IMG/VR virus record: IMGVR_UViG_3300038450_000150
DNA length: 64,000 nucleotides
Source: a virus
Taxonomy: Duplodnaviria; Heunggongvirae; Uroviricota; Caudoviricetes
Strand: one strand, 5' to 3'
Shown: one piece after another, positions 26,416 to 43,730 of the stretch
Position numbering within the stretch: position 1 is the stretch's first letter
Layout: the number at the start of each line of letters is the position of its first letter
Position numbers and translations under genes: made by a program
Notes under the pieces: generated by a model
The model's database searches: none
Told to the model about the DNA's origin: nothing
What the model saw: only the letters and a program-made list of their open reading frames with translations

Positions 26416-26416
26416 T

Positions 26417-26839: not shown

Positions 26840-26845
26840 TTTATG

Positions 26846-27064: not shown

Positions 27065-27066
27065 TT

Positions 27067-28126: not shown

Positions 28127-28128
28127 AG

Positions 28129-28410: not shown

Positions 28411-28591
28411 TATTTGGAATCATTTTTATTCCAAAGATATTTCCTGTTTTTTTCTTTAGAGCAGCCATTTTCTTTTTAGTCACAGATAGATGCTGTGAAT
28501 AAACGTGAAGCATTTCGTACTCAGAACCTCTAACAGTCACTGAGTCTGGTAGTGTATATGAGTACTTTCCAACTACTACTTTTCTATCCAT
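28355..28591 (-). CDS. small basic protein (78 aa), array member
   Basis: ORF. Its 5' end overlaps the previous ORF, so the true start may be internal. Confidence 0.3.
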   Translation of the reverse strand: MDRKVVVGKYSYTLPDSVTVRGSEYEMLHVYSQHLSVTKKKMAALKKKTGNIFGIKMIPNNETLRGFPPLYVVYGKAR

Positions 28592-28891
28592 TTACTTTCT
28601 CCTCCCTAAATGAACTCCCTTATCGGTTATAACCGTCCACTCTGAATTTCCTCTGAATTTTGTCATACTGCCTCTACGCTTTTTCTTAGGAGCAATATAT
28701 ACAGCGTGTGTATCCTTACCCTTTCCACTAGGAACTATTGGTGAATATGACTTTGGAATTTTTACAATCCTTATCTTGTAACCAATTGAAGCAGATTCCT
28801 TTGCGTGTGCTTGGCAATGTGCTTTTGTTCCCTCACAGTCTAGGACATAGGTTTCTCCATTGAATTTCTTCGTGAATGCTGTCTGCTTCAT
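28592..28891 (-). CDS. small basic betaalphabetabeta-like family protein (99 aa)
   Basis: TYVLDCEGTKAHCQAHAKESASIGYKIRIV...HAVYIAPKKKRRG. Confidence 0.4.
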   Translation of the reverse strand: MKQTAFTKKFNGETYVLDCEGTKAHCQAHAKESASIGYKIRIVKIPKSYSPIVPSGKGKDTHAVYIAPKKKRRGSMTKFRGNSEWTVITDKGVHLGRRK

Positions 28892-29035
28892 TTACTTTTT
28901 CCTCCCATATTTCTGTTCAATTAGTTTCTGGTGCTTCTGTAGACGTTTAATCTCTTTATCTGTCTCTCTGAAAAACTTCTCCATTTTAAGTCTTTCATCT
29001 TTGAGCATTTTTCTGGCTACTGGATCGCTTACCAT
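28892..29035 (-). CDS. mini basic coiled protein (about 47 aa)
   Basis: Own translation MVSDPVARKMLKDERLKMEKFFRETDKEIKRLQKHQK... TAATG overlap with its neighbour. Confidence 0.25.
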   Translation of the reverse strand: MVSDPVARKMLKDERLKMEKFFRETDKEIKRLQKHQKLIEQKYGRKK

Positions 29036-29367
29036 TACTTCTTTCTCCTTACTGTTTGTTTGAACCCATAGAACCTTTCAAACTGTTCTGGGGTCATCGG
29101 TGTTCCACCACTTGGAAATTTCTTGTAGAGTTTACAAGCATTTGAGATTGTAATCTTTTTCTTTGTGTAGCCATATACCTGTGGGTTGCTAAGAACCATA
29201 CCAGCTCTCTGCAATGGGAATTGTTTTCCAACTATCAGGGACTTTCTCTTTTTCTTGTATTCTGAGTCAGATATCTTTTTTGCAAGCCAATCTTTATCAA
29301 GTTTTTCAAGCTGTCTATTAATGGCTTGTATTCTTGCTGATATCTGCTTGTGTGTTAGCATTACCAT
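29035..29367 (-). CDS. basic protein (110 aa), array member
   Basis: ORF. Confidence 0.35.
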   Translation of the reverse strand: MVMLTHKQISARIQAINRQLEKLDKDWLAKKISDSEYKKKRKSLIVGKQFPLQRAGMVLSNPQVYGYTKKKITISNACKLYKKFPSGGTPMTPEQFERFYGFKQTVRRKK

Positions 29368-29368
29368 T

Positions 29369-29614
29369 TTAATCTACCCATCCTGCTTCTCCAGACTTGA
29401 GCAATTTTCTAGCCCTATCTGGTGTGATTGCTCTCATTGATGCTACATCTTCCTTACGGAAAGCATAATAATGAGGTGTCTGTGATGATCTTGCTTTCTT
29501 TGCCTGAGTTGGAGTTCCAGCCCAAAGTCCATCCTGTATGTGTCTACCTCTCTTCATTTTGATATGATAGATCTTCCATCCAGACTTGATATTACGTCTA
29601 CCAACTACTGGCAT
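29369..29614 (-). CDS. basic protein (81 aa), array member
   Basis: ORF. Confidence 0.35.
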   Translation of the reverse strand: MPVVGRRNIKSGWKIYHIKMKRGRHIQDGLWAGTPTQAKKARSSQTPHYYAFRKEDVASMRAITPDRARKLLKSGEAGWVD

Positions 29615-29620
29615 CTAAGA

Positions 29621-29785
29621 TCACCTATAATCTCCAACATTTCCATATCCTGGTTTCTTTGGATGGAATTTTGATTTGTGTCTCTTGTCAGCAGCTATGG
29701 ATTTACCGATGCTAACCCACTTTTTGAATCTGCCGTCTGCATAGCGTTCTACATAGAACTTTCCAATTTTACTTCTTGCAACCAT
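29621..29785 (-). CDS. mini basic protein (about 54 aa)
   Basis: Own translation MVARSKIGKFYVERYADGRFKKWVSIGKSIAADKRHKSKF... Antisense to the spurious + ORF 29678-30058. Confidence 0.25.
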   Translation of the reverse strand: MVARSKIGKFYVERYADGRFKKWVSIGKSIAADKRHKSKFHPKKPGYGNVGDYR

Positions 29786-29968
29786 TTACTTTTTCAACCC
29801 CATTCTTTCTGCTCTTTTGGATGCTACAAGCAATTCCTTATTTGTGAACACCCAAGATCTGTCCTTTGCCATAATTCCAGAGTAGGTTTTATGGCGTTTT
29901 GGATCGTGAATTCTAACGGCAGTAACTTTAGTTTTTCTGCCTACTGTGTGTGCTTTATTTTCTGTCAT
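29786..29968 (-). CDS. basic protein (60 aa), array member
   Basis: ORF. Confidence 0.35.
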   Translation of the reverse strand: MTENKAHTVGRKTKVTAVRIHDPKRHKTYSGIMAKDRSWVFTNKELLVASKRAERMGLKK

Positions 29969-30175
29969 TTACTTTCTTCTCCTCATTCTGTCACGGTGTT
30001 TCTTTGTAGAACGGACACGAGCGTGATATACTTCCATAGCGTGTTCCTTACCAGCTAACCTGATTGCTTTTAGAGGTTTACCATTGCCATCTGTACCACC
30101 AGAAACCCAGTAGTACCCAAGGATAATACCGTATGTATCCCTGTCCTTACAAATAGAAACTTTTCTCCTTGCCAA
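29969..30175 (-). CDS. very basic protein (68 aa), first gene of the array
   Basis: ORF ending ...KKHRDRMRRRK. The distinct promoter region lies immediately upstream. Confidence 0.35.
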   Translation of the reverse strand: MARRKVSICKDRDTYGIILGYYWVSGGTDGNGKPLKAIRLAGKEHAMEVYHARVRSTKKHRDRMRRRK

Positions 30176-30324
30176 GGTTTGTCTAAGTGGATATCACTAG
30201 CTGAGAATATAAAGTTTATGATAAATCGTTATGATATTGATAGATGTATCGGTATGGTACATCTAGCTCATCTTTTTATGATAATTCTTTTATCTTAGCG
30301 TTCAAGATAGATTAACTGATAACA
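30176..30324. promoter_or_regulatory. divergent control region of the basic-protein operon and the + gene 30325
   Basis: Lacks the canonical TTTATAAATATT motif. Contains aatataaag TATA-like element and three copies of TTATGATA(A/T). Confidence 0.4.
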
Positions 30325-31055: not shown

Positions 31056-32900
31056 TTAGACTGCTTTGGTAGCTGCCTCTTTCTTTCGAAGCATCTGAGC
31101 CAGCCAGACATTGAGTAGGTTGCCTTGGGCTTCTCCACCATTGCCACCTGAAACTAGGATATCAGGTGTGATAGTGATCTTGCCAGAGGCAATCTGCTCG
31201 AACACCTTTAGCATTGCAACGTTGTCCTGACCTAGGACACCCATCTGTGCAGCATATGCTTTAGCTGTACCTACACCTTCCTGTTCATTCTTGTAAGCTG
31301 TACCGTCTGCCTGAGCCTTAGTTGCATCACGAACACCAGCAGCTTCCATCCTTGCTGCATCTGCACGGTCTGCTGCAATATCGATTGACAGTTTAGCTGA
31401 GATAACGTCAGTCTGCTTGTCAGCCCTTGCCGTTTTCTCTGCTACAGCAATCCTCTGCTCCTGTGCAAGTGCTTCCTGCTGGTACTGTGCCTGTTGCTGG
31501 GCAGCTATTTCCTTCTTTGTCTGAGTTTCTAGTAGTGCCTTGTCAACATCAATGTAAGCAATTAGCAGCCCCTGAACCTCTGTGTGGTACTTCGAGAACT
31601 CTTCACGAGCCTTCTCAAGTGCCTGTTCCTGTAGTTCAGTTCGGCTGTGGACGAACTGCATTGCCTGTTTCTTGCCAGCTTCGTTACGGAAGGAGGAGTC
31701 GATCAGTGGGTGAGCAACCTGTTCAATCAGGTTCTGTACAGTACCGAACCTTGCAATCACGAAAGGTGCATTGGCTGGAGGTACACGGATGATGAGCCTG
31801 ACATCTACATCAAGCTGGAACCCATCCATTGAAGTTACACGAAGTTGGCTGAACTTGAAGAACTCTGTGATCTTCTGGCTCTGGGAAACGTCCTTTCCCT
31901 GAGCTCCAAGTACACGTGTCTCTGCTGGACCCTCAGTTGATGCCCAATCTATAGTGATAGCGGAAGTAGGTACTAACTCAGGCTTGTAGGCGATTTGGTT
32001 AAGGTTGTACTTTCCAGGTGTAACTGGCTCGGCCAGAATACCACGCTGGTTCTTGTCAGTGATTAGAAGAGACTCAACTGTCTCTGGAATTGGGGAATTG
32101 AGATCAGGTGTCTTGCTGATTTTTGGTGCTTCACCACTAGGCTGGACTTCCTTTCCAACACTGGAAATGATTACAGCAACGTAGCCTGGTGGGACAACAG
32201 CAACATCATAGAGAGTGACTTGGAATAGGTTAGTATTTATGTAGTAATCACCTGGCTGAAGTGTCTCAAGTTGTGGACCCCTGTAGCCACCAGCCTCAAT
32301 GAAGGCTTGGCTGTCTTGGAAGTGCTTGTGATCTGATGTGGGTGCTGGAGCAATTATGAAACCAGATGGCAGTGAATTGCCATCCATAGCAACAACTACA
32401 CCGACCCTCTCCTGTGGAACTTGTACTGCACCAACTGCTGTGACTTTGAATACAGCTAGGTTGATACGATAAACACCTGGGCGAAGTACACCAATCTGAG
32501 GACCCTTCTTTCCACCATTCTTGAGGAATGCCCCTGCATCTTGGTACGAATTACATTCAACCTCATCTGCAAGGATACGACCAGATGGAATGGATTGTCC
32601 GTCAATGGACTCAACTAGACCAATATTTCCCTGTGGAATCTCGGTCACTTCGACCTTCTTAATCTTCCAGATTATGGGGAAACGCCAGTAAAGTCCAGGC
32701 ATAAGGGTTTCAGCTTGAATACCGACCTCACCCTCAGTAGCAATGATTTTTCCCTGTGGTAATTTCTTGCCAAACATTTTCTTAACTAGGATACCGACCT
32801 CACCAGCTTTGATGAGAGCGAATCCTGGTAGCACGAAGAAAACTAAGCATATTAGTACGACAATGCCTAGAATCCCTAGTCCGATTAGATCTTCAAACAT
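31056..32900 (-). CDS. SPFH/flotillin-like (YqiK-type) membrane protein with internal repeats
   Basis: N-terminal TM. Duplicated about 90-aa segment (FQDSQAFIEAGGYRGPQLETLQPGDYYIN versus YQDAGAFLKNGGKKGPQIGVLRPGVYRIN). C-terminal Ala/Glu/Gln-rich coiled coil and ITITPDILVSGGNGG...LLNVWLAQML tail typical of the flotillin C-terminus. Confidence 0.65.
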   Translation of the reverse strand: MFEDLIGLGILGIVVLICLVFFVLPGFALIKAGEVGILVKKMFGKKLPQGKIIATEGEVGIQAETLMPGLYWRFPIIWKIKKVEVTEIPQGNIGLVESIDGQSIPSGRILADEVECNSYQDAGAFLKNGGKKGPQIGVLRPGVYRINLAVFKVTAVGAVQVPQERVGVVVAMDGNSLPSGFIIAPAPTSDHKHFQDSQAFIEAGGYRGPQLETLQPGDYYINTNLFQVTLYDVAVVPPGYVAVIISSVGKEVQPSGEAPKISKTPDLNSPIPETVESLLITDKNQRGILAEPVTPGKYNLNQIAYKPELVPTSAITIDWASTEGPAETRVLGAQGKDVSQSQKITEFFKFSQLRVTSMDGFQLDVDVRLIIRVPPANAPFVIARFGTVQNLIEQVAHPLIDSSFRNEAGKKQAMQFVHSRTELQEQALEKAREEFSKYHTEVQGLLIAYIDVDKALLETQTKKEIAAQQQAQYQQEALAQEQRIAVAEKTARADKQTDVISAKLSIDIAADRADAARMEAAGVRDATKAQADGTAYKNEQEGVGTAKAYAAQMGVLGQDNVAMLKVFEQIASGKITITPDILVSGGNGGEAQGNLLNVWLAQMLRKKEAATKAV

Positions 32901-32941: not shown

Positions 32942-32963
32942 TTTATAAATATTTGGAATTTGG
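32942..32963 (-). promoter_or_regulatory. BRE/TATA-like promoter motif upstream of the SPFH gene
   Basis: tttataaatatttggaatttgg. Confidence 0.5.
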
Positions 32964-33045
32964 TGGGGTTACAAGGAGTCGAACCCTGACCCTTGGTTTT
33001 CCCCTATTTCTGGGGACCAAGATGCTACCGCTACACCATAACCCC
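32961..33045 (-). tRNA. tRNA with an apparent 13-20 nt insertion in the anticodon region (intron-like), isotype undetermined
   Basis: Minus-strand sequence GGGGTTA...GGTTCGACTCC...TAACCCCACCA has acceptor and T-arm. The segment CTTGG-TCCCCAGAAATAGGGGAAAA-CCAAG is too long for a 7-nt anticodon loop. Confidence 0.5.
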
Positions 33046-33093
33046 AATGATATGCTCTAAGAAATGTGTGAATTTATAAATCTTGTGATTGGG

Positions 33094-33522
33094 TTAATCC
33101 CCACCGCCACCGCCATCTCCCCCACCACCGCCATCTCCTCCTCCTGCATCTCCACCACCACCAGCATCAGAACCACCACCACTGCCACCAGAGTCGATTC
33201 CACCACCTGAACCACCATTTGATGCACTGCCTGAGTCACCTGGACTTGGACCCTCTTCGTCATCTCCATTTGAGGATGTTGATGGATTTGAACTACTTGA
33301 ACTGCCACCACCGTCATAGAAGAAATATGGCATCCAAGGAACCCATCCAGTGTCAGTCGAGTTGTCTTTGCCTGATGTCGGTTTTGGATATGACCTTGAT
33401 TGCTGGTTAATCATAGCTGTTTTTATATTGGAAAGTAAAATAACTGTCAATAACAGTATGACAAACACCATAATTGCTGAAAGGGCTAAAGTTAGCTTTG
33501 TTCCCGTTCTCATATCGATCAA
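33094..33522 (-). CDS. membrane-anchored Gly/Asp/Ser-rich low-complexity protein (142 aa)
   Basis: N-terminal TM helix. C-terminal GSGGGIDSGGSGGGSDAGGGGDAGGGDGGGGGD. Promoter at 33543, 20 nt upstream. Confidence 0.45.
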   Translation of the reverse strand: MIDMRTGTKLTLALSAIMVFVILLLTVILLSNIKTAMINQQSRSYPKPTSGKDNSTDTGWVPWMPYFFYDGGGSSSSSNPSTSSNGDDEEGPSPGDSGSASNGGSGGGIDSGGSGGGSDAGGGGDAGGGDGGGGGDGGGGGD

Positions 33523-33625
33523 TAAATTGTAAGTTTGAGTGTTTATAAATATTTAGTATATTTTTTATATAGATAATTAATAAAATTTTGTTTGAAACTA
33601 ATTATCTCGGAAATAAATAATTATT

Positions 33626-34396
33626 TTATGGTATCAGTTCTATCTTAGTAACCGTATCATCATATGATGGTGCTTCATAGATAGTTCTGTCCCAATATGG
33701 TTGACCAACTTTAACGTGCATTATTATATCAGTCTGTGGCTCGATGTAGACAATTCCCCTGTCTGTGGTGTTGAAAGCTACCAAAGCGTGTCCTACACTT
33801 GTTGGCATAAAATCACCCATCTCGATAGACACAAAGAAACACCGATAACCAGCATTAAACGCATTTCTCTTCACATCTGATGTGAAATCGTGGCAAACAT
33901 AGCTACCTTCTACATATTCTTTCTCATCTGTCTTGTCATTCTGTATGAATGTAAGCATCTGTTGATATGTTGGGTCTTTGATATTAAATCCTGTAGCTTT
34001 CCATCCTTTTTGATATCCTACTGTATAGCCTGTTTTTTCACCCAAGCCATAGCCAGTTGTATTTCCGACTTTGTAACCGTTGGTGTATCCAGTGGCAATA
34101 CCAGCCGTGTTACCAGTATTGTATCCAGCTAGATCACCCACATTGTAGCCTCTACCATACCCAACGGAATCACCAGCCGTATATCCTGTATTATACCCAT
34201 CCTTTGTTCCATTTGAATAACCAGAGGTATATCCAACTGGATAACCTGATTTGTATCCAGCAATCTGTCCCTCAGTATATCCAGCAATATGTCCTTGAGT
34301 GTTTCCAAAGTAAAAACCAAAAAAGGTTCCACCAAGGATCATTGCTGTCATTCCCACAATTACTATTGTACTTGTCTTTTGGTTCATTTCATTCAC
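33626..34396 (-). CDS. membrane-anchored protein with GY-x-x tetrapeptide repeats and a C-terminal transglutaminase-like (Cys-His-Asp) domain
   Basis: N-terminal TM. About 25 repeats of the (T/S)GY(x)xG type. C-terminal YVCHDF...VGHALVAF...IEPQTD resembles the transglutaminase-like cysteine-peptidase core. Confidence 0.45.
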   Translation of the reverse strand: MNEMNQKTSTIVIVGMTAMILGGTFFGFYFGNTQGHIAGYTEGQIAGYKSGYPVGYTSGYSNGTKDGYNTGYTAGDSVGYGRGYNVGDLAGYNTGNTAGIATGYTNGYKVGNTTGYGLGEKTGYTVGYQKGWKATGFNIKDPTYQQMLTFIQNDKTDEKEYVEGSYVCHDFTSDVKRNAFNAGYRCFFVSIEMGDFMPTSVGHALVAFNTTDRGIVYIEPQTDIIMHVKVGQPYWDRTIYEAPSYDDTVTKIELIP

Positions 34397-34440
34397 TATT
34401 ACGTATTGATAATTAACTTACTTAAAAATGTTATGGATTA

Positions 34441-34520
34441 TGGCGGGTTCGGAGGGATTTGAACCCCCGACAAGTGGATTAAAAGTCCACTGCGCTAAGA
34501 CCTGACTGCGCCACGAACCC
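34441..34520 (-). tRNA. tRNA-Lys (anticodon TTT), CCA encoded
   Basis: GGGTTCG...GTGGA-CTTTTAA-TCCAC...GGGGGTTCAAATCCCTC-CGAACCC-G-CCA. Own TATA at 34543. Confidence 0.75.
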
Positions 34521-34559
34521 AGCACTGAATAGTATGACTGAATTTATAAATATTGTGAA

Positions 34560-34637
34560 TGGTGGACTCGAAGGGATTTGAACCCCTGACCCTTGGCTTA
34601 GAAGGCCAATGCTCTATCCAAGCTGTGCTACGAGTCC
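34560..34637 (-). tRNA. tRNA-Arg (anticodon TCT), CCA encoded
   Basis: GGACTCG...GGCCTTCTAAGCC...GGGGTTCAAATCCC...CGAGTCC-A-CCA. Confidence 0.75.
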
Positions 34638-34639
34638 AA

Positions 34640-34719
34640 TGGTGAGTCTGAGGGGATTTGAACCCCTGAATGGAGGATTAAGGGTCCTCTGCGCTAGACC
34701 TTGCTACGCCACAGACTCA
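34640..34719 (-). tRNA. tRNA-Lys (anticodon CTT), CCA encoded
   Basis: GAGTCTG...GAGGACCCTTAATCCTC...GGGGTTCAAATCCCC...CAGACTC-A-CCA. TATA at 34739, about 20 nt upstream. Confidence 0.75.
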
Positions 34720-34757
34720 GCATAAAAGACAAAATCTGATTTATAAATATTTAGAAT

Positions 34758-35018
34758 CTACTCTTCTGGCTTCTCAGCGACTTCCTTTACACTATCAAGG
34801 AAATCTACATTGTTTGGAACTTCTACAATATTCTTTGATGTCACTCCAATAGATTGAACAAGTACACCAAAAAATGCACCTAAACCAAGTATTCCAAAAA
34901 GATATATAATTTCATTAGGGTGAATTAGGGTGAATATAAGTGAAACAACTATTGAAATTGATAATAGCAACCAACCCTTGGCATTAATGCCACCCTCTAC
35001 CACAACTTTACGACTCAT
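34758..35018 (-). CDS. small membrane protein (86 aa)
   Basis: Two TM helices. Confidence 0.3.
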   Translation of the reverse strand: MSRKVVVEGGINAKGWLLLSISIVVSLIFTLIHPNEIIYLFGILGLGAFFGVLVQSIGVTSKNIVEVPNNVDFLDSVKEVAEKPEE

Positions 35019-35290
35019 TTCTTTTTCACCTTTTTTATTTTCTCTGGAATTACAGCTTTTTGATTTTCAAGATAAGGATCATCTGGCTTACCAAGTTCGT
35101 CCCTAAGTTTTTTATTAATCCAGGCTTCAAATTTACATTTTTGACATTGTACTACCATTGGCTCTGGTAGCTGGTTTGGTCTTTTGCCCCATATTGGTAT
35201 GAGAATAAATTTCCAATCTGCCTGATAGGAATTATGTTCAGTGCAACCATTAGGACAATATATCCCTATGAATTCTTTAGGATCTGCCAT
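35015..35290 (-). CDS. Zn-ribbon protein (91 aa)
   Basis: CPNGC...CQKCK. Confidence 0.35.
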   Translation of the reverse strand: MADPKEFIGIYCPNGCTEHNSYQADWKFILIPIWGKRPNQLPEPMVVQCQKCKFEAWINKKLRDELGKPDDPYLENQKAVIPEKIKKVKKK

Positions 35291-35459
35291 ATTATATCAA
35301 GTTCCCGTAACTGCTTTACCCATAAATTCTGCAAGCCATAGCAGGACTTTGAAGATGAAATACACACCAACTCCTAGGGCAAAGACGAGCAGAAGATAGA
35401 TTAATATCTTCTTTTCATTTGCGTGTTCATCATCTTCGTCTATGTCAAACAATTTAGGT

Positions 35460-35711
35460 TCACCTAACTTTCCTTATCTTGCTTGTAATTACAATTTCAC
35501 CATCTTTAATATCCATTTTTACTGTTTGAATTTTAACTAGTTTGAAGATGTATTGATTGACACCTTGTTCATTAGCCCAACCTTGCTTAACATCCATTCC
35601 AAACTGTTTCTCTGCCTCTTTGAGGGTTTTGCACCAAGAAACTTGCTCGAAGGCACAACCATTACCGTGTGCTTCACGATTATCAAAACACTTAATATAT
35701 TTTGTGCTCAT
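35460..35711 (-). CDS. hypothetical protein (83 aa)
   Basis: ORF. Confidence 0.35.
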   Translation of the reverse strand: MSTKYIKCFDNREAHGNGCAFEQVSWCKTLKEAEKQFGMDVKQGWANEQGVNQYIFKLVKIQTVKMDIKDGEIVITSKIRKVR

Positions 35712-35911
35712 TTCTTTGCAGACTCCTTCTCCTGTTTCATAACTGTAATACTATCCCAATAATTTTTCTCGTATATGCTCCTTCCTTTTTCATAGTTGAA
35801 AAAATGAATTAAGCACTCGATTACGTCTAATTCGTCTGTTGCCTCTCTTGAGAATTCGGTTTTTTGTTTACCTTCCTTTCCTTTCCATTTTATCGTGTAT
35901 TTAGTGTTCAT
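35708..35911 (-). CDS. hypothetical protein (67 aa)
   Basis: ORF. Confidence 0.3.
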   Translation of the reverse strand: MNTKYTIKWKGKEGKQKTEFSREATDELDVIECLIHFFNYEKGRSIYEKNYWDSITVMKQEKESAKK

Positions 35912-36144
35912 TCCTTTGCAACCTCTGCATCCACGGTCTTTAGGAATTCAATGAACTTGGCTATGTGGTTTTGACCAAGGTCATTCATAATCTCATCGTA
36001 TCGCTCGACCCCTTCTGGATAGCCCATCTCCTTGAGAACCTTGTCGATAATCTTCATTCGCTTGACAAGTCTTTCCTGTTCCTTGGGATCTGAGGATACA
36101 ACCTTTCCATTTTTCACATACACATTGATCGGCATTTGTTTCAC
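35908..36144 (-). CDS. hypothetical protein (78 aa)
   Basis: ORF. Confidence 0.3.
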   Translation of the reverse strand: MKQMPINVYVKNGKVVSSDPKEQERLVKRMKIIDKVLKEMGYPEGVERYDEIMNDLGQNHIAKFIEFLKTVDAEVAKE

Positions 36145-36354
36145 CTACACATTGAGAATCTTTGCCATTTTAATGAGATTCTTCTGTGTTTCAATTAGAC
36201 TTTCCCTAATTGCTACAATCTCCAGAAGTTCTGGTGTGGTTATCTTATCAGTATTAAAAAATGCGTATTGATCAATCGCTTCTGCATATGGCTTCAAATC
36301 CATTGCAAAACGAACTCCTTCGAACCACTGGCAATCACGCTTTCTAGCAGACAT
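36145..36354 (-). CDS. hypothetical protein (69 aa)
   Basis: ORF. Promoter motif at 36384-36402. Confidence 0.3.
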   Translation of the reverse strand: MSARKRDCQWFEGVRFAMDLKPYAEAIDQYAFFNTDKITTPELLEIVAIRESLIETQKNLIKMAKILNV

Positions 36355-36407
36355 TTTGAACGTAGGAGAGATAGATGTGTGAATTTATAAATATTGTGAT
36401 TAGTTAT

Positions 36408-36596
36408 TTATGGACAGATAATACTTCCTCTAATAAAATTATCATACTTCCTATTTTCCTTGAATTTCTCAATCTTTCTTTCACGTTCTGTAGGTGGAAG
36501 AACCTCACAAAAATTCGGGTATTGATCCAAATGCCAGTGCCAGACCCATTCCTTATCCGACATTTGTTGACCACAATGCAAACACCTTACCATCAT
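36408..36596 (-). CDS. Zn-binding mini protein (62 aa)
   Basis: CLHCGQQ...HWH. Confidence 0.3.
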   Translation of the reverse strand: MMVRCLHCGQQMSDKEWVWHWHLDQYPNFCEVLPPTERERKIEKFKENRKYDNFIRGSIICP

Positions 36597-37015
36597 TTAG
36601 AATTGTTCACCTCACTGAGTTCTTCCATCAATGTTACTTTTTTGAGCTGGGTTGGTGGTGTTTGGACATCAATCGTTCCAAGTGTTGAGTCTACATTCCA
36701 AACCATAAACTTGAAACCACCAACTGTGAAATTTTGGGGTAAGTTGTTGTTATAAAATGTTATAATATATCCACCAAGGTGCATTGAATGTGTGAGAGGT
36801 GTAGCGGAAAATAAACCACCACCATTGTCTGTAAAGCCATTATATGTGTATGGACCAAGTTGATCGCCTGGAATGAGGGTCACTATGTTCTTTGGTTTCA
36901 ATGGAACTGGTGTTGTGAATACAGATGAAATAATACTAATTATTGCTATAGACATAAATAATCCAAAAAATAGTTTTGGTATCATATCGAACATATCTAA
37001 GTCAGACACTTTCAT
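36593..37015 (-). CDS. secreted/membrane beta-rich protein (140 aa)
   Basis: N-terminal hydrophobic signal/TM. Downstream of the collagen-like gene in the same operon. Confidence 0.4.
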   Translation of the reverse strand: MKVSDLDMFDMIPKLFFGLFMSIAIISIISSVFTTPVPLKPKNIVTLIPGDQLGPYTYNGFTDNGGGLFSATPLTHSMHLGGYIITFYNNNLPQNFTVGGFKFMVWNVDSTLGTIDVQTPPTQLKKVTLMEELSEVNNSK

Positions 37016-37021
37016 TTCACC

Positions 37022-37867
37022 TTATTCATCATCGTCTTGAGGATTAGAACGTGGTCTACCTCTCGGTCTTGTTGGTGGTAATGGTTGTGGCTTACTACGA
37101 ACAAATGCACCTATTGAAAATGCCATTGACATAACACAAAACCCAATAATTGTATAGAATTCCCATTCTGGTGCTATTTCTCCTTGGGGACCCTGAATGC
37201 CTTGAGGACCTGTTGCGCCTGTGTCACCCTTATCACCCTTTGCACCAGTTGCACCAGTTAATCCCCTATCACCCTGTATTCCTTGTATTCCTTGTAATCC
37301 CTGTATGCCTTGTGTTCCGTTAAATCCTCTTAATCCTTGAGGACCAACTGGACCAATAAGTTTTGCTTTTATAGTTGAGTTCAATTTATCAAACCAGTCT
37401 GGTGGTGGAATGAAATTTGTGATTGTAAATGATTTTGCAATTGTTACTTTACTTCCATCCATTCCTTCAACAATAATTTTTATTGTGTGCAGACCAAGAT
37501 TAGAGTAGGGTGTTTGATTAGGTACTAAAATAAATGTGTCCCAAGTTACTAAAATATTTGCTCCAGCAGTACTGTATAATGGTTCAGATTTAATAATCTC
37601 AGAAAAATCATCATAATATACATATAAATATGAAGAAACTGGACAAGTTGTGTGATCAGCTTCTGGATTAACTTCAATATGTATATTTATTTTTGTATTA
37701 ACATCACCAGATTCTGGTGATATTATTACAGATAAATTATTTATTGGGACATCTGCTTTTATTAATTTAGGTGTAGAGATTACAAAACATATTAAAAAAA
37801 TCATTAAGATAAATTTGTGTTTGAACATTTTATAATTTCTCACCACAGTGTTTGCAAAACTGAGCAT
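37022..37867 (-). CDS. collagen-like membrane protein with C-terminal AT-hook-like tail
   Basis: Signal peptide, globular domain, G-x-y repeats (GPVGPQGLRGFNGTQGIQGLQG...GDTGATGPQGIQGPQG), TM helix, then tail RSKPQPLPPTRPRGRPRSNPQDDDE. Confidence 0.6.
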   Translation of the reverse strand: MLSFANTVVRNYKMFKHKFILMIFLICFVISTPKLIKADVPINNLSVIISPESGDVNTKINIHIEVNPEADHTTCPVSSYLYVYYDDFSEIIKSEPLYSTAGANILVTWDTFILVPNQTPYSNLGLHTIKIIVEGMDGSKVTIAKSFTITNFIPPPDWFDKLNSTIKAKLIGPVGPQGLRGFNGTQGIQGLQGIQGIQGDRGLTGATGAKGDKGDTGATGPQGIQGPQGEIAPEWEFYTIIGFCVMSMAFSIGAFVRSKPQPLPPTRPRGRPRSNPQDDDE

Positions 37868-38120
37868 CTTCAGAATTAAGTGTTTTGCATTTTTGGCATT
37901 TGATTTTTATACGTATTTTTTGGTCAGAATTAACTTCTTGTTTCATAATAATTTGCTGGTGTTGACTGGATGTGATTAAACCAGCAAAAAGTATTATTCC
38001 ACCCAAAAACATTGCTGGAACACCTATAAGTGCTCCTATAATTGTAAGTGAAATTAGCCATCCTAAAAAACCAATTATAAGCCCAATGATTATTAATCCA
38101 AGACGCAAGTTGATTACCAT
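37830..38120 (-). CDS. polytopic membrane protein with C-terminal Zn ribbon (about 96 aa)
   Basis: Start moved to the internal Met (MVINL...) because the longer ORF runs into tRNA-Ile. TATA at 38140-38147 lies 20 nt upstream. C-terminal CQKCK...CKHCG. Confidence 0.4.
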   Translation of the reverse strand: MVINLRLGLIIIGLIIGFLGWLISLTIIGALIGVPAMFLGGIILFAGLITSSQHQQIIMKQEVNSDQKIRIKIKCQKCKTLNSEDAQFCKHCGEKL

Positions 38121-38158
38121 AAAATAACAAATATGAAAGTTTATAAATATTATGAAAA

Positions 38159-38235
38159 TGGTGGCGAAGAGCAGACTTGAACTGCTGATGCCCTGATTAT
38201 CAGTCAGGTGGACTACCAAGCTGTCCTACTTCGCC
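38159..38235 (-). tRNA. tRNA-Ile (anticodon GAT), CCA encoded
   Basis: GGCGAAG...CCTGA-CTGATAA-TCAGG...CAGCAGTTCAAGTCTGCTG? T-arm...CTTCGCC-A-CCA. Confidence 0.7.
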
Positions 38236-38240
38236 AAGAA

Positions 38241-38321
38241 TGGTAGAGAGGATGGGATTCGAACCCACATAAAGGCAAGGATTATGAGTCCTCCGAGATA
38301 ACCAGGTTCCTCTACCTCTCT
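38241..38321 (-). tRNA. tRNA with anticodon CAT (Met, or Ile2 if lysidine/agmatidine-modified); 81 nt, 8-nt variable loop
   Basis: AGAGAGG...GAGGA-CTCATAA-TCCTT...GTGGGTTCGAATCCCAT-CCTCTCT-A-CCA. Only 5 nt from tRNA-Ile. TATA at 38343-38350, 21 nt upstream. Confidence 0.6.
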
Positions 38322-38342
38322 GGGTATTATAAATAAAGTGTG

Positions 38343-38350
38343 TTTATAAA
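38343..38350 (-). promoter_or_regulatory. TATA box of the tRNA(CAT)-tRNA-Ile transcription unit
   Basis: gtgtgtttataaagattt. TATA is 21 nt upstream of the mature 5' end. Confidence 0.5.
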
Positions 38351-38353
38351 GAT

Positions 38354-39811
38354 TTATTCTCTGACGATGTAAAGGTTGTTTAATGACCTTGTTAGAGCTA
38401 CAAACTTGCAGTTATCTTCCTCTTTCAACTGCTGGGGATTGCCCTGCTTTACAGCATATGGGTGTGGCATAAGATCATAGCGGAGTATGTAGACGTTCTC
38501 AGACTCAAGTCCCTTAGCCCTATGAACACTGCTGAAAACTATGCCCTCAATATTGTCACGGAAAATGAATTTCACTTTTGATGTAAGATCGGTTATGGTT
38601 TTGCTCTCATCGGCTATAGCAAAGATTGTGTCAACCCTGTCACTGAGGGTGAGTATTGATGCTTCCTTTTTCTGGATCTTCAACTTCTCGGTCTGCTTCT
38701 GCTGGTACTCTTTCAGACCGATTAGGAAAGTGCTGAGATCGGTAGCACCACACATCTTTACGACACGGTTGATTAGGTTCTCAAGCTGATCGCCTATGCT
38801 CTTGCCAACAATTATGACCTTCTTGCCGTTTCGAATAAGTTCGAAGGCTGGTTCTACGAGAGGGGCATTTGTTCGGCAGAGAACCATATCCTTCGGCTGG
38901 ACTTTTTTCATAAATGTGGGATAGTCTATTTCCTCAACTTTTCCCTGCTTGGCATTTGGACCACATTCGTGTGTGATGTTTGGGAAGGTCTTGTTTACAA
39001 AGGCAACGACAGACTTTGGGTTTCTGTAACTGATGCTGAGTGGAAATTCGACAGCATCAAGCATATTTCCCAAGTAATCCATAGCATTGATTCCAGCTCC
39101 ACGGAAACCGTATATGGCTTGGTTTCTGTCACCGATTACTATTGTGCATCCGTTGGGTTTCCTGATTTTGAGGATCATTTGAACCTGAGTCTCGTTCAAG
39201 TCCTGTGCCTCATCAACAAGGACATAATCGTATTTTCTCATTGGGATATCGAGAACGACAGGAAGCCAGATCATATCATCATAATCGATTGTTTGTGTGT
39301 CTTTTTTAGATCGTTGTATAACATAATTAACGGCCTTGAACACTGTTTTTTCATTACCATTTAATTTAATGTTATAGAAATCACACATTTCAATCATAGA
39401 ATCTTCATCTTCTGAATCTGTTAATGTGTTTTTCACATATTGAACAACTTTAGCAATTGTCTGCCAGAGCATTTTATTGACAACAGTGTCCTCTAGGATT
39501 GAGTATGTTTTTTGATTGTCCATAATGAAATTACCATATACATTACGAAGTTCACGATTGCCAAGAGAATGAAGTGTTTTTGCTTCTCCACCAGGCATAT
39601 TTGCTAGTTTTTCTTTTGCCTCAAGTTGATTCTTTTTATTAAAAACAAGATATATCCAGCTTTTATTTTTTGGTATATAATTTTTAATAAACTCTTGAAT
39701 TGTTCGAGTTTTACCAGAGCCAGCAGTTGCACTCACTATGATGTTCTTATCTCCCTTTCTGCCAGCCTCAAAGATTGCCTTCTGGTATGAGGACGGGACG
39801 AATGTTGACAT
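38354..39811 (-). CDS. UvrD/PcrA/Rep-family SF1 DNA helicase
   Basis: Walker A ATAGSGKTR, motif II VLVDEAQDLNETQ, motif III VIGDRNQAIYGFRGA. Confidence 0.75.
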   Translation of the reverse strand: MSTFVPSSYQKAIFEAGRKGDKNIIVSATAGSGKTRTIQEFIKNYIPKNKSWIYLVFNKKNQLEAKEKLANMPGGEAKTLHSLGNRELRNVYGNFIMDNQKTYSILEDTVVNKMLWQTIAKVVQYVKNTLTDSEDEDSMIEMCDFYNIKLNGNEKTVFKAVNYVIQRSKKDTQTIDYDDMIWLPVVLDIPMRKYDYVLVDEAQDLNETQVQMILKIRKPNGCTIVIGDRNQAIYGFRGAGINAMDYLGNMLDAVEFPLSISYRNPKSVVAFVNKTFPNITHECGPNAKQGKVEEIDYPTFMKKVQPKDMVLCRTNAPLVEPAFELIRNGKKVIIVGKSIGDQLENLINRVVKMCGATDLSTFLIGLKEYQQKQTEKLKIQKKEASILTLSDRVDTIFAIADESKTITDLTSKVKFIFRDNIEGIVFSSVHRAKGLESENVYILRYDLMPHPYAVKQGNPQQLKEEDNCKFVALTRSLNNLYIVRE

Positions 39812-39813
39812 TT

Positions 39814-40038
39814 TTATACTTCCAATGCTAATTCTCTACAAAGTTGTATAAACTCATTTTCTTGGCGTAGTGGATTAATATCCTCAATTTTTGAATTAAA
39901 AATATAACCACATTTTGGGCAGAGGCAATAATTCATCCAATAGCGATCTTCAATCAGCTTACGATAATAAAGTGGTTTTATATCACATTGTGGGCATACC
40001 CTATTTAGGATAATGTCCAAGTCCCTGTTGGTCAACAT
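39814..40038 (-). CDS. Zn-ribbon protein (74 aa)
   Basis: CPQCD...CLCPKCGY. Promoter motif at 40068-40087. Confidence 0.35.
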   Translation of the reverse strand: MLTNRDLDIILNRVCPQCDIKPLYYRKLIEDRYWMNYCLCPKCGYIFNSKIEDINPLRQENEFIQLCRELALEV

Positions 40039-40084
40039 TTTATACGGTGTAGATGTGTTTAGTACTCTTATAAATATTGTGGAT

Positions 40085-40285
40085 TATAGTTACAGGGGAG
40101 TGATTGGCTCCCCTGCCTGAGCTTCCTTGGTTATCAACCAGTGGACATTGAGACATACACGGTGATCAGTCGTGCTGTTACTCATTCTCAGGACGTATTT
40201 ACCTGTCGCTTTCCCGATTACTAGTCGGGAGCAACATAGGGAACCACACCATTGGTAAGGTGTTACGCACAGGTTCCTTCGTAGA
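40085..40285 (-). ncRNA. candidate structured non-coding RNA (about 200 nt), class unknown
   Basis: GC about 50% versus about 35% nearby. Many stable hairpins (GGGGAG/CUCCCC, GGAACC...GGUUCC enclosing ACACC/GGUGU, CCCGA/UCGGG, CACG/CGUG). Flanked by TATA motifs at 40302 (correct spacing for a minus-strand TSS near 40280) and 40069. The embedded 67-aa ORF has only a 9-nt TATA-to-ATG gap. Confidence 0.4.
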
Positions 40286-40313
40286 AGAAACACGTTAAGA
40301 CTTTATAAATATT

Positions 40314-40389
40314 TGGAGCCCCAGGCAGGACTCGGACCTGCGACCATCAACTTACAAGGTTGACGCACTACCAACTATGCTACAGGGGC
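40314..40389 (-). tRNA. tRNA-Thr (anticodon TGT), CCA encoded
   Basis: GCCCCTG...TCAAC-CTTGTAA-GTTGA...GGTCCGAGTCC...CTGGGGC-T-CCA. One T-T mismatch in the acceptor stem. TATA variant at 40416. Confidence 0.65.
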
Positions 40390-40425
40390 AACAGTGGTAA
40401 AAGGTATGTGTATGGTTATAAATAT

Positions 40426-40933: not shown

Positions 40934-42730
40934 TCACCTAATAGCTTCCTTAAACCACTTCGGGAAGAATCCTATATTCTGGTTGAATAAGTCTGAGAAC
41001 TTCCCATCAATTATGAAAGTCTCACCCCAATCGTCAACACTTCTACAGACTCTACCATAAGTCTGGATTAGGAGCATTGCGGTTGTCCAGTTGTACCAGG
41101 ATTGATCCTTTTCGACCCTCTTCTTAATCTGAGGATCACCGAGAGATGGATAGGGTACTTTAACTAGGACTTGCCATCTAGCCAAATCATCTTTTAGGTC
41201 GATGCCCATTTTCATACTCGGTGTTGTCATAATGCAAGGTGCTTTTGCTTGGAAGAATCTCTCGAAAGTATCTTCACGCCTCTCATCTGTGTCAATAAAG
41301 TTTCCTCTCTCATCTCTAAGAGAAACATTGGTCATCATATACTGCTTGTATTTTGAATTAGCCATAATATATCTTGCAATTTCGTTATTGTGAGTGTGTA
41401 TTACACCTTTGTGCTGCAAACGAGTTGGAATGATATCGTTGTCAATTATTCTAAGCATATTCGGTAGGAACTGATCCATTTCTTTGAAAATCGCTCTTCC
41501 AGCAAATTTTTGGTAGAGTGGACGATGTTCGACTGGGAATGTTGAGTTGCCTATTCTGAAAAACTTAACCTCTTCTTCTATGCCTAAGTATTTCTGTAAT
41601 TTTTCTTTGTCAAGTATTGTGGCCGATATAAGAATGTGTTTGTCAGTGTGCTTGAAAAGCTGGTCAGAATATTTATTAATTGTAACTGGTTTGAAAGTGG
41701 CAGATGTTTTGTCTTTTAAGACAACCCAGTTATCAATATCATCTTCTAGACTATCTAGCAACTCTGTGATTCTATTTGTTATATTTTCAACTGTTTTACG
41801 ACTCTTCAGTTCTTGTACACGATTTGAACTATCACCTATATCCCTTTGGATTGAGGCGAAAGTTCCATACTTTTCTGAGATCCCTTTAAGTTCACCCTGG
41901 ATATTCTGCAACCATTTTTCCCAATCTTCCATTTTTGTGTATTCTGGTATTATTGGAAATGGCATATCTTTAAAATACATCCAAATACCATTAAATGTTC
42001 TCGAAGAAATTAAAACTTCAATATAGGTCATTAAAGTATTTTCGATTGTGTGTGCCTCATCAAAGATTCCTAAAAATCTTTTATTGAAGCTGTGTGCGTG
42101 ATTTTGTTCGTGAAGGTAATAGGAATAGTTGTGGATGGTAAGAGGTGAATGGATTGCCTTGTCCTTGGCTTGCCAGTAGGCACAGAGTGGATAAGAACAA
42201 TTGCTCCAATCGAACTTAACTCCAAACTTGTCACGATCTGCTCTCGGTGACGCATTATCATCTTCAAAATTTTCTGGGTCAATTTCAGCACCCATCTCCA
42301 TATCGGTTAGTGCAGACTCACGTTTTACTTGGTTTGCCTTGTGGGGGCATTTGTAACCATTAATCAGGGTACACGGTGCTCTGTCTGCATAGAGTGTGTT
42401 CCCTATTCTCTCAGCCCAAAACTCTGGTTCCATATCTCCTGCTGTGAGAGAGCAGGGATAATTGCCCCTACCTTTGATTAGTGCTATGTCTGGAAAATCA
42501 CGTAGATACTGTCCCTGTAGGTAGATGTCGTTTACAACAAAGTGTGTAAGGTTGCCATATTCCTGATAGACATACTTAGCGATTGCATAGGCTACAGGTG
42601 ACTTACCAAAGCCTGTAGGTGCTTCTAGGAAGATGTAATTGTAGGGATCAAGGTTGGCTTCTATAAGACTTAGGATTTCCTTCTGGTATGGACGGAATTC
42701 CTTGAATGGGAAACAGGCTTCAATTGCCAA
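40934..42730 (-). CDS. XPD/Rad3-like SF2 (DEAH) helicase with Fe-S cluster cysteines
   Basis: Walker A EAPTGFGKS, DEAH box FDEAHTIEN, Cys cluster between them (CSLTAG...CTLINGYKCPH...CSYPLC), C-terminal VKVPYPSLGDP. Confidence 0.65.
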   Translation of the reverse strand: MAIEACFPFKEFRPYQKEILSLIEANLDPYNYIFLEAPTGFGKSPVAYAIAKYVYQEYGNLTHFVVNDIYLQGQYLRDFPDIALIKGRGNYPCSLTAGDMEPEFWAERIGNTLYADRAPCTLINGYKCPHKANQVKRESALTDMEMGAEIDPENFEDDNASPRADRDKFGVKFDWSNCSYPLCAYWQAKDKAIHSPLTIHNYSYYLHEQNHAHSFNKRFLGIFDEAHTIENTLMTYIEVLISSRTFNGIWMYFKDMPFPIIPEYTKMEDWEKWLQNIQGELKGISEKYGTFASIQRDIGDSSNRVQELKSRKTVENITNRITELLDSLEDDIDNWVVLKDKTSATFKPVTINKYSDQLFKHTDKHILISATILDKEKLQKYLGIEEEVKFFRIGNSTFPVEHRPLYQKFAGRAIFKEMDQFLPNMLRIIDNDIIPTRLQHKGVIHTHNNEIARYIMANSKYKQYMMTNVSLRDERGNFIDTDERREDTFERFFQAKAPCIMTTPSMKMGIDLKDDLARWQVLVKVPYPSLGDPQIKKRVEKDQSWYNWTTAMLLIQTYGRVCRSVDDWGETFIIDGKFSDLFNQNIGFFPKWFKEAIR

Positions 42731-43730
42731 CGTCTATACCACCGAGTTGATATTTTCTTACGTGATTACGAATTGAAACCTCTGTCACGCCACAGGTTGT
42801 TGCTATAACCTTCTGGGAGATGTTAAGTTCCATCTTCTTGGATGCCAGATAAATTGCACAAGCTGCTACACAGAGTGGACTTGAGCCACTTGTGATTTTT
42901 AAGTCCTCTGCCTCTCTGCAAATCTTTAGGGCTAACATTTCAAATTCACCAGATAGGTTTAACTTAGAGGTGAACTGGGAAATAAAGATTGCAGGATCCC
43001 TGCGAGTTGGCTTGATCTTCATTGATTCTACCATAAGGCGATAGCAACGAGCAATATCCTTCTTGTCGATGCCTGTGACCTCTTCAATATTCTCCATTGT
43101 TGTTGGAATGCCATTCTCTCTGAGGCTGTAGTACATACAGGCAACTAGGATTTGCTGGATTGAACGTCCTCTAATGAGGTTTATGGCCACCGATTTTGTA
43201 AATATATCAAAGATATCGTCATCTATTGCATCTGGTATGCTGAGTCTGTATTTGTAGGTTGTATAAAGTGACCTTGCAGAGGATAGTGTTCTGGTTAGAG
43301 ATGCCTTATCACCTGTTGCCCTATTGTTCATTCTTGAAAGACGAAGATATTCTATCTTCTTTTCTCCTGTAAGTTTCTTGTTTTGACCATCTAAATTTGA
43401 CCAAGGAGCAATCCTTGTATGGCTTGAAGAGCCATTAACGACACCTGGATTTGTGATTGGCGTAGCCCTGTCAAGTTGCTGTGGCTCACCATCAAAGTTT
43501 CGCCATTCCTTGTCTCTGGAAATTACTTGTTCCTCAAGAACAACCAACCCACAGTTTTTGCAAACAACCTCACCAGTAACATTATCGTGATAGAAGTCAC
43601 GACTGCCACAAATTGGGCAGTTTAATGGAGCATCTTGTGGGGCTTCGTGGGACGGGTCATTAGACATAAACATCACTCCTATTGTACCTACATTTATAAA
43701 TATTATGAGATTTTTATCCAAACCACTCAT
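42720..43730 (-). CDS. tfb: transcription factor B (TFB/TFIIB homolog)
   Basis: N-terminal Zn ribbon CPICGS...CKNCG followed by two cyclin-like repeats. 336 aa. Confidence 0.8.
   Translation of the reverse strand: MSGLDKNLIIFINVGTIGVMFMSNDPSHEAPQDAPLNCPICGSRDFYHDNVTGEVVCKNCGLVVLEEQVISRDKEWRNFDGEPQQLDRATPITNPGVVNGSSSHTRIAPWSNLDGQNKKLTGEKKIEYLRLSRMNNRATGDKASLTRTLSSARSLYTTYKYRLSIPDAIDDDIFDIFTKSVAINLIRGRSIQQILVACMYYSLRENGIPTTMENIEEVTGIDKKDIARCYRLMVESMKIKPTRRDPAIFISQFTSKLNLSGEFEMLALKICREAEDLKITSGSSPLCVAACAIYLASKKMELNISQKVIATTCGVTEVSIRNHVRKYQLGGIDVGN

Follow-up and report, generated by a model that had tools for sequence, protein, structure and literature searches.

The window analyzed here is a 64,000-nucleotide (nt) stretch of an archaeal virus-like element (IMG/VR virus record IMGVR_UViG_3300038450_000150) found in peat and wetland metagenomes, whose source samples include JGI 3300018005, 3300018015, and SRR5824233, and our subject is the group of transfer RNA (tRNA) genes that it carries, together with their promoters, their probable function, and the likely host. 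The GC content of the window is 39%, and ~89% of its open reading frames (ORFs) lie on the minus strand, as do all the tRNA genes.

tRNA genes and their transcription units

ARAGORN and the Rfam covariance model RF00005 (gathering score 29) each find exactly seven tRNAs in the window, all on the minus strand and with the same coordinates (46.9-66 bits; Table 1), in agreement with a preliminary description of this DNA that had located seven tRNAs at these positions. All seven pass the gathering score with a full cloverleaf, and reading of the sequences confirms the earlier statement that each gene encodes its 3'-terminal CCA. An encoded CCA does not set the element apart, because a tRNA-Arg, the sole tRNA of the host lineage that we read (L017), likewise encodes it. 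The six anticodons that had been assigned, Lys-UUU, Arg-UCU, Lys-CUU, Ile-GAU, CAU, and Thr-UGU, are all correct, and ARAGORN calls the seventh gene, at 32961-33045, Trp(cca). The set had been characterized as serving A/U-ending or A-rich codons throughout, which does not hold: tRNA-Trp(CCA) reads UGG, and tRNA-Lys(CUU) reads the G-ending codon AAG. Six of the seven genes are base-for-base identical in independent assemblies from five samples, a comparison that covers these six, with the tRNA-Trp gene outside the compared loci; tRNA-Thr is identical in five assemblies, tRNA-Lys(UUU) in L001 and L002, and tRNA-Lys(CUU) in two assemblies besides that of the window. The deviations from universal positions in tRNA-Thr (C55 and U6.U67) and in tRNA-Arg (A12.A23) are reproduced in independent assemblies as well. 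No further tRNAs were found in the 6.5 kb and 8 kb past the window ends.

The tRNA genes are preceded by a sequence box that recurs across the element. The 11-mer ATATTTATAAA occurs 24 times in the window, at sites from 2573 to 58529 and mostly on the minus strand, against an expectation of 0.16; it is palindrome-cored, is often followed by a CACACA-like stretch, and is also present in three relatives of the element discussed below (L016, L018, and L051). In front of protein genes, the distance from the box to the ATG clusters at 28-29 nt. The box looks like an element-wide archaeal promoter consensus, combining TFB recognition element (BRE) and TATA box, in an element that has its own TFB. 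Five such boxes delimit five tRNA units, namely, [Thr-UGU], [CAU + Ile-GAU], [Lys-CUU + Arg-UCU], [Lys-UUU], and [Trp-CCA]. There is no box in the 2-nt gap between tRNA-Lys(CUU) and tRNA-Arg or in the 5-nt gap between the CAU tRNA and tRNA-Ile, and tRNA-Arg is predicted to be co-transcribed with tRNA-Lys(CUU), and tRNA-Ile with the CAU tRNA. The claim that these tRNAs have their own promoters thus stands for five transcription units and not for seven genes, given that tRNA-Arg and tRNA-Ile have no box of their own. The usual spacing between the archaeal TATA box and the transcription start site is ~22-24 nt. Because the boxes lie 21-27 nt before the tRNA 5' ends, the transcripts may carry a 5' leader of only ~0-5 nt, with little or no need for RNase P.

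Table 1. Positions of the tRNA genes, their promoter boxes, and other features in the window
Feature	Position	Strand	Details
pre-tRNA-Trp(CCA)	32961..33045	-	85 nt, 74 nt after predicted splicing; encoded CCA; 46.9 bits
Predicted hBH (bulge-helix-loop) motif of pre-tRNA-Trp	32993..33020	-	stem UUGGU/ACCAA; AAA bulge 32998-33000; CCCC/GGGG helix, 33012-33015 with 33001-33004; 7-nt loop
Predicted 11-nt intron AAAUAGGGGAA	32999..33009	-	nt 37-47 of the precursor, inserted at 37/38
tRNA-Lys(UUU)	34441..34520	-	canonical loop CUUUUAA; encoded CCA; 66 bits
tRNA-Arg(UCU)	34560..34637	-	A12.A23 mismatch; encoded CCA; 64.1 bits
tRNA-Lys(CUU)	34640..34718	-	loop CCCUUAA (C33); encoded CCA
tRNA-Ile(GAU)	38159..38235	-	encoded CCA; 64.2 bits
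tRNA(CAU), initiator-like	38241..38321	-	8-nt variable loop; encoded CCA; 54 bits
tRNA-Thr(UGU)	40314..40389	-	U73; C55 in T-loop; U6.U67 mismatch; encoded CCA; 65.5 bits
Promoter box TTTATAAA, tRNA-Trp	33073..33080	-	27 nt before mature 5' end; box-to-tRNA interval 33046-33080
Promoter box, Lys(UUU)	34543..34550	-	22 nt before 5' end; interval 34521-34550
Promoter box, Lys(CUU)-Arg(UCU) unit	34740..34747	-	21 nt before 5' end; interval 34719-34747
Promoter box, CAU-Ile unit	38343..38350	-	21 nt before 5' end; interval 38322-38350
Promoter box variant TTTATAAC, tRNA-Thr	40415..40422	-	25 nt before 5' end; interval 40390-40422
Thg1-family protein	3531-4313	-	260 amino acids; PF04446, 70.6 bits
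Collagen-triple-helix-repeat protein	10336-11088	-	
SPFH/Band-7 membrane protein	31056-32900	-	adjoins tRNA-Trp
Glycine-rich ORF of GGT/GGC repeats	33094-33522	-	directly upstream of tRNA-Trp
Collagen-triple-helix-repeat protein	37022-37867	-	
TFB	42720-43730		
GH5 cellulase-family protein	58596-60872	+	758 amino acids; opposite strand

The tRNA-Trp gene and its predicted intron

The seventh gene carries the complete archaeal identity set of tRNA-Trp, that is, A73, G1-C72, G2-C71, and C34 C35 A36 (PMC9976931), with GGGG.../...CCCC at its ends and the anticodon CCA. An extra segment of 20 nt between the anticodon-stem halves had been noticed before; it is indeed present, the loop of the precursor being 18 nt long (CCCCAGAAATAGGGGAAA) and the larger figure counting the closing U-A pair. 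In the RF00005 alignment, a perfect stem UUGGU/ACCAA bears a 17-nt insert in the anticodon loop, and the minimum free energy (MFE) fold consists of the same stem, a 3-nt AAA bulge, a 4-base-pair (bp) CCCC/GGGG helix, and a 7-nt loop. The strict bulge-helix-bulge (BHB) motif, hBHBh' with its 3-4-3 arrangement, is absent: there is one bulge only, and the 7-nt loop AGAAAUA cannot form h'. By predicted fold and energy, the precursor corresponds instead to the relaxed BHB motif (hBH, or BHL), in which the anticodon-stem helix is followed by a 3-nt bulge, a 4-bp helix, and a loop with the other cleavage site (PMC3239211). Motifs of this relaxed kind are cut by the (alpha-beta)2 and epsilon2 splicing endonucleases, whereas the alpha4 and alpha2 enzymes require the strict 3-4-3 motif (PMC3239211).

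The boundaries of the intron were placed by cutting after the second base of each 3-nt bulge, a rule that derives from the canonical 37/38 geometry and not from the output of any tool. So defined, the predicted intron is 11 nt long and falls at the canonical 37/38 site, the splice junction would read CCCCAG/AACCAAGG, the exact junction base (G37 or A37) being inferred from the model, and the spliced 74-mer is called a perfect tRNA-Trp(CCA) cloverleaf with the mature loop CCCCAGA (anticodon CCA, C33, and G37). The alignment to the closest homolog (see below) equally permits the junction CCCC/AAA (35/36), a shift that leaves both the CCA anticodon and C33 unchanged. It had been observed that no single excision yields U33 in this gene, and position 33 is indeed C under every excision; the proposal of a non-canonical intron that accompanied this observation is not borne out, as the insert fits the canonical site within a relaxed hBH motif, and what is odd is the C33 of the mature loop. 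Two other ways of reading the insert were rejected: excisions that would give GGA or CGA (Ser), on account of a tRNA body that has the Trp identity set and no long variable arm, and a 9-bp anticodon stem closed by the loop AGAAAUA, which has no U33 and would present the anticodon AAA.

The homolog was found by a pattern scan of metagenomes, with anchors common to His, Gln, and Gly tRNAs. The pattern matches the window, yet the element itself was not among the hits, so the scanned collection lacks its contig. This tRNA-Trp (L077, Ga0315287_10173252) is 85% identical to that of the element over the aligned columns, lacks the insert, and has the loop CUCCAAA with U33. All 21 stem pairs hold in both tRNAs, with five compensatory double changes, two of which lie in the anticodon stem flanking the insert. 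These findings bear directly on the possibility that there is no intron at all and that the 85-nt gene works unspliced, with a weak 6-position anticodon stem (one G.A and two G.U) and a 14-nt variable loop. ARAGORN proposes just such an intron-free model, and it has the same CCCCAGA loop. We nevertheless consider this model scarcely tenable: it reaches only -13.0 kcal/mol, compared to -26.2 kcal/mol for the cloverleaf with the hBH motif, the MFE fold and the RF00005 model both use the UUGGU/ACCAA stem, and the homolog lacks exactly the inserted segment and co-varies in that same stem. Moreover, tRNA-Trp belongs to the class I tRNAs.

Under the intron model, the anticodon of the 85-nt precursor would be locked in the CCCC/GGGG helix next to the AAA bulge, and a host splicing endonuclease together with a ligase would excise 11 nt at 37/38 to yield the 74-nt tRNA with the loop CCCCAGA. 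An endonuclease of broad specificity is proposed because the motif is hBH and not the strict hBHBh'; the need for such an enzyme would be an independent clue to the host range. Compared to the archaeal hBH introns described previously (PMC3239211), the one predicted here has the same stem helix, 3-nt bulge, 4-bp helix, and loop replacing the second bulge and the outer helix, and is similarly short, 11 nt versus the 13-nt hBH intron described there. It differs in that the relaxed motif is at the canonical rather than a non-canonical site and in that the gene belongs to a mobile element and not to a chromosome, with splicing predicted.

The homologous tRNA-Trp lies on a contig (L077 1-2505; 57% GC) that is itself virus-like and encodes YopX-like ORFs. 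At least nine archaeal-type tRNAs are present on it, and the one at 2283-2379 combines an A1-U72 acceptor with an anticodon loop that contains a 25-nt insert.

The CAU tRNA and the C33 loops

The CAU tRNA lies 5 nt upstream of tRNA-Ile(GAU) and has an 8-nt variable loop, as noted at the outset, when it was suggested to be a tRNA-Ile2. Archaeal initiator tRNA-Met is marked by three consecutive G-C pairs at 29-41, 30-40, and 31-39. The CAU tRNA has the first two of these, G29-C41 and G30-C40, followed by A31-U39, along with A1-U72, A11:U24, the loop CUCAUAA, and an acceptor AGAGAGG...CCUCUCU-A-CCA that matches the archaeal initiator consensus AGCGGGG in five of seven positions. The A1-U72 pair is systematic in archaeal initiators, whereas elongators mostly have G1-C72 (PMC5393177); this pair, the CUCAUAA loop, the two G-C pairs, and an initiator-type D-arm and D-loop make up the likeness to archaeal initiator tRNA-Met, and A31-U39, the 8-nt variable loop, and the predicted co-transcription with an elongator tRNA-Ile make up the difference. 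The ortholog in the same slot of L018 has U1-A72 and G11:C24; its anticodon stem is UGGGG/CUCCA, and its variable loop is of the normal 5-nt length.

A degenerate pattern spanning the D-arm through the anticodon loop, built from the CAU tRNAs of the window and L018 only, has 20 matches in IMG/VR, and all 20 are of the initiator type, with no elongator Met or Ile2 among them; some are bacterial forms with C1xA72, and the others have A1-U72 and the consensus acceptor of archaea, AGCGGGG/CCCCGCU. The CAU tRNA is 63-72% identical to A1-U72 initiator-type tRNAs and 53% identical to the adjoining tRNA-Ile, these being the two kinds of tRNA compared. It looks, therefore, like a divergent derivative of an archaeal initiator tRNA that most likely accepts Met and may act in initiation or in elongation. 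One of the 20 matches, a viral CAU tRNA (L034, IMGVR_UViG_3300037751_000127, 1328-1404), has the archaeal initiator acceptor AGCGGGG/CCCCGCU, likewise lacks the third of the initiator G-C pairs, and has a variable loop of 7 nt; together with that of the window, it hints at a recurrent viral initiator-like variant.

The suggestion that the CAU tRNA is a tRNA-Ile2, in which host TiaS would convert C34 to agmatidine so that it reads AUA, is not supported by its sequence, and we regard it as doubtful, albeit with some circumstantial appeal. AUA amounts to 27.2 per mille of the codons of the element (36% of Ile codons), is commoner than ATG, and compares with 18-19 per mille in the host proxies introduced below; it would suit the A-ending series AAA, AGA, and ACA, and the CAU gene shares its predicted transcript with tRNA-Ile(GAU). 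Yet AUA ranks only 14th in excess demand, the ortholog in L018 stands alone without an Ile partner while AUA is at a host-like level there, and the tRNA has A1-U72 along with a D-arm and an anticodon arm of the initiator type, a two-arm signature that no elongator Met or Ile2 in IMG/VR matched. Among archaeal CAU tRNA classes, initiators are reportedly the best separated (PMC8450103).

Two of the seven tRNAs have C33 in place of U33, tRNA-Lys(CUU) in the loop CCCUUAA and tRNA-Trp(CCA) in the predicted mature loop CCCCAGA. U33 is conserved in archaeal tRNAs, a known exception being the C33 of tRNA-Cys in Sulfolobales (PMC7668247), and formation of t6A37 by the bacterial and yeast enzymes is blocked by C33 (PMC8887486), a block that, by analogy, could matter for Lys-CUU. 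A base other than U33 was found in 10 of the 266 other distinct tRNAs of the fetched loci, against which the two of seven found here are modestly in excess (binomial p ~0.03) without being a unique trait. Because the nearest homolog of the tRNA-Trp (L077) and the tRNA-Lys(CUU) that neighbors that homolog both have U33, C33 would be the derived state.

One might read these loops as part of a counter-defense, in which the tRNAs of the element stand in for those that the host loses during infection to cleavage or depletion by its own anticodon nucleases, the C33 copies are resistant, and a Thg1-like enzyme repairs 5' ends. Apart from the excess of C33 and its apparently derived state, there is indeed a Thg1-family gene in the window, which is kept in a relative whose helicase is 55% identical (L021-L023), where it lies beside MT-A70 and N6 methyltransferase genes. 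Its product is predicted to be an enzyme of the tRNA-His guanylyltransferase or 3'-5' polymerase type and would provide the element with a second tRNA-related function. In bacteria, nucleases are known to target Lys and Trp tRNAs. Altered anticodon loops have been suggested to let phage tRNAs escape VapC, PrrC, and colicins (PMC10264068), and the deviation from host-type consensus in Lys-CUU and Trp-CCA is of a similar kind, in an archaeal system that comes without a known cognate nuclease and in which most of the seven loops are canonical. Five of the seven, in fact, are fully canonical, including that of Lys-UUU, the classic PrrC target; an anticodon nuclease is neither known nor shown for the host lineage, a few percent of non-U33 is usual in virus-associated tRNAs, and the role of the Thg1-like protein is a prediction. 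All told, we find this explanation unlikely. An extended version, in which resistant C33 tRNAs for Lys and Trp, the divergent initiator-like tRNA, near-leaderless transcripts that bypass 5' processing, and Thg1-like repair form an archaeal tRNA counter-defense kit, strikes us as quite improbable. If true, such a kit would be the first seen in archaea and would allow viral translation to continue while the host cleaves or withholds its tRNAs.

Host lineage, codon demand, and origin of the tRNA set

The best clue to the host is the SPFH gene, which adjoins tRNA-Trp. Its product is 72-75% identical, over the full length, to proteins of Candidatus Bathyarchaeota metagenome-assembled genomes (MAGs), with Methanoregula next at ~63-65%, and one of the Bathyarchaeota homologs has ribosomal protein genes nearby, in what is plainly a chromosomal region; the SPFH gene of the element looks like a recent capture from a host. 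A second line of evidence comes from the related element L016 (ENA ERZ27247850 k141_1516244, 1-12665; 52% GC), which has a TFB 53% identical to that of our element, the same promoter box, and a tyrosine integrase. It is integrated directly after the genes for RNase P protein components 3 and 2 of a Bathyarchaeota-like chromosome, the adjoining RNase P proteins showing 85% protein identity to a Bathyarchaeota MAG; ARAGORN found no tRNA at the integration junction. Because of the SPFH identity and the placement of the related element beside Bathyarchaeota RNase P genes, the host lineage is probably Bathyarchaeia, an assignment at the level of the lineage and not of the species. The TFB of the element, at most 36% identical to cellular TFBs, gave no host, and its PolB is only ~24% identical to the PolBs of haloarchaeal tailed viruses.

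Relatives were sought via the UvrD helicase, in IMG/VR and then in all sources, and via the SPFH gene. None of those found through either anchor has the tRNA-Trp gene, and only L018, the '87% relative' (54% GC), has a tRNA, the CAU one; searches of IMG/VR with the two proteins that flank the tRNAs found no relatives. Since close relatives are without the tRNA set, it appears to have been acquired recently. The same absence could be taken to mean that the tRNA genes are decaying relics, or recombination or attachment sites, with no part in translation, a reading in which the deviations from universal positions in four of the seven genes would fit, as would the frequent use of tRNA genes as integration targets in archaea (PMC4090602). 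We consider it very unlikely. All seven genes fold into full cloverleaves well over the Rfam threshold, with encoded CCA and a correctly spaced consensus promoter, every stem difference between the tRNA-Trp and its homolog is compensated, and an integrase was not found in the window.

In the codon usage of the element (19,215 codons counted), AAA is the commonest codon (827), and AAG (778), ACA (593), AUA (522), AUG (491), AGA (439), and UGG (312) are also among those counted; the seven tRNAs read 22.9% of all codons (p ~0.02 when compared to seven anticodons drawn at random from 45). Compared to two Bathyarchaeota chromosomal samples, the codons read by these tRNAs are enriched in the element, with a mean log2 ratio of 0.70-0.78 (p 0.008-0.015). 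When codons are ranked by excess demand, AAA is first, GAA second, CCA third, ACA fourth, AAY fifth, and AGA sixth; UGG is in only modest excess. The codon match is, then, real but partial. Of the compensation for host codon usage that the preliminary description proposed, the enrichment (p ~0.01-0.02) and the presence of AAA, ACA, and AGA among the top six stand, while AAG is not in excess and GAA, CCA, and AAY go unserved in the region examined; the statement that the tRNAs decode 'exactly' the over-used codons was too strong.

We favor, with moderate confidence, the interpretation that the element carries seven functional tRNA genes, in five units with their own promoters, that most likely top up the tRNAs of a probable Bathyarchaeia host. 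If expressed, spliced, and aminoacylated, these tRNAs, whose gene identities, structures, boxes, codon statistics, and homologies are shown above, would benefit the element by raising the supply for codons that it, being AT-rich, uses far more than its GC-richer host, chiefly AAA, ACA, and AGA. Several observations weigh against this interpretation. Of the seven tRNAs, only three serve codons that are among the top six in excess demand; the element uses AAG less than the host proxies do, and the region examined contains no tRNA for GAA, CCA, or AAY (Glu and Pro among them). The proxies are two 20-kb Bathyarchaeota samples with 49% and 62% GC, which represent the lineage and not the actual host, and the count of seven applies to the ~78 kb examined of a ~197-kb element, with ~113 kb remaining. 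Deviations at universal positions in four of the seven genes (C33 twice, C55, U6.U67, and A12.A23) may lower function. The stem GAGGA/UCCUU of the CAU tRNA keeps two of the three initiator G-C pairs, with A-U at 31-39, and its ortholog in L018 has U1-A72, not A1-U72. Finally, L051, a relative just as AT-rich (40.7% GC; SPFH protein 83% identical), shows no tRNA over the 21.8 kb of it that was examined.

The closest precedent is the haloarchaeal tailed virus HGTV-1, which has 34-36 tRNAs, one of them with an intron, in a set only partly explained by codon usage (PMC13532342, PMC8651126). Both are large and archaeal, with their own tRNA genes, one of which is interrupted by an intron (predicted here), and in both, A-ending codons are preferred relative to the host and codon usage accounts for only part of the tRNA set. 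In contrast to HGTV-1, our element has only seven tRNAs in the ~78 kb examined and a probable Bathyarchaeia host in anaerobic peat, and in its window, no RtcB, Rnl2, CCA-adding enzyme, or aminoacyl-tRNA synthetase was found, but a Thg1-like gene is present. The set also resembles those of AT-rich bacteriophages, which feature AAA, AGA, ACA, and Ile or Met-type CAU tRNAs, in an element far more AT-rich than its host lineage. It differs from them in its archaeal transcription signals, in a gene that would need protein-mediated splicing, and in the inclusion of tRNAs for AAG and UGG, codons that are not clearly in deficit.

Thus, an intron-bearing tRNA on an archaeal virus is not new, HGTV-1 being the precedent; what is new is the probable host lineage, the predicted placement of a relaxed motif at the canonical site, the occurrence of C33 in two loops, the divergent initiator-like tRNA, and the Thg1-family gene that accompanies them. 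Viral tRNAs are well known in phages and barely studied in archaeal viruses, and none are known to have been reported from viruses of Bathyarchaeia, an uncultured lineage that is very abundant in sediment and peat. With five promoters and seven genes, the set is compact and testable, and its two natural C33 tRNAs and divergent initiator-like tRNA could serve to probe the tolerance of archaeal translation. If the tRNAs merely adjust codon supply, a familiar strategy has been extended, in an ordinary way, to a host lineage new to it.

Genome form and neighboring genes

The window sequence recurs on contigs of 197,232 bp (JGI), 197,240 bp (NCBI JAFMOA010002524.1), and up to 197,619 bp. By coordinate arithmetic, JAFMOA010002524.1 and JGI Ga0187878_1000020 begin within ~250 bp of each other (window ~17360-17600) and run in opposite directions; the start point shared by these two ~197.2-kb contigs lies inside a coding region, and the window crosses it. 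Because the contigs start at one point that the window crosses, a complete circular or permuted genome of ~197 kb is suggested. The HGTV-1 genome has been named the largest known double-stranded DNA genome of an archaeal virus in a 2026 paper; if a virus, the element described here would exceed it in size.

Besides TFB and the Thg1-family protein, the window encodes PolB (family-B DNA polymerase), NrdD, two helicases, an RFC-like ATPase, a DUF3987 primase-helicase, UDG, and an ERCC4 nuclease. We call the element virus-like because its helicases and TFB have strong matches to PHROG families and distant relatives of the helicases are found on IMG/VR viral contigs, with no virion gene among the genes seen in the window. 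Beyond the window end (L049 1-7960), genes for a glycosyltransferase, a methyltransferase, WbqC, PIG-L, and a hexapeptide transferase form a cluster that suggests glycan synthesis or remodeling. On the minus strand of the window, at ~24100-30200, ~25 small ORFs (50-110 amino acids), rich in Lys and Arg and with a strong AT skew, form a dense tandem array; many of their ends resemble Y-[VI]-L-Y...K...K, and L051 has a comparable run of ~70-amino-acid ORFs.

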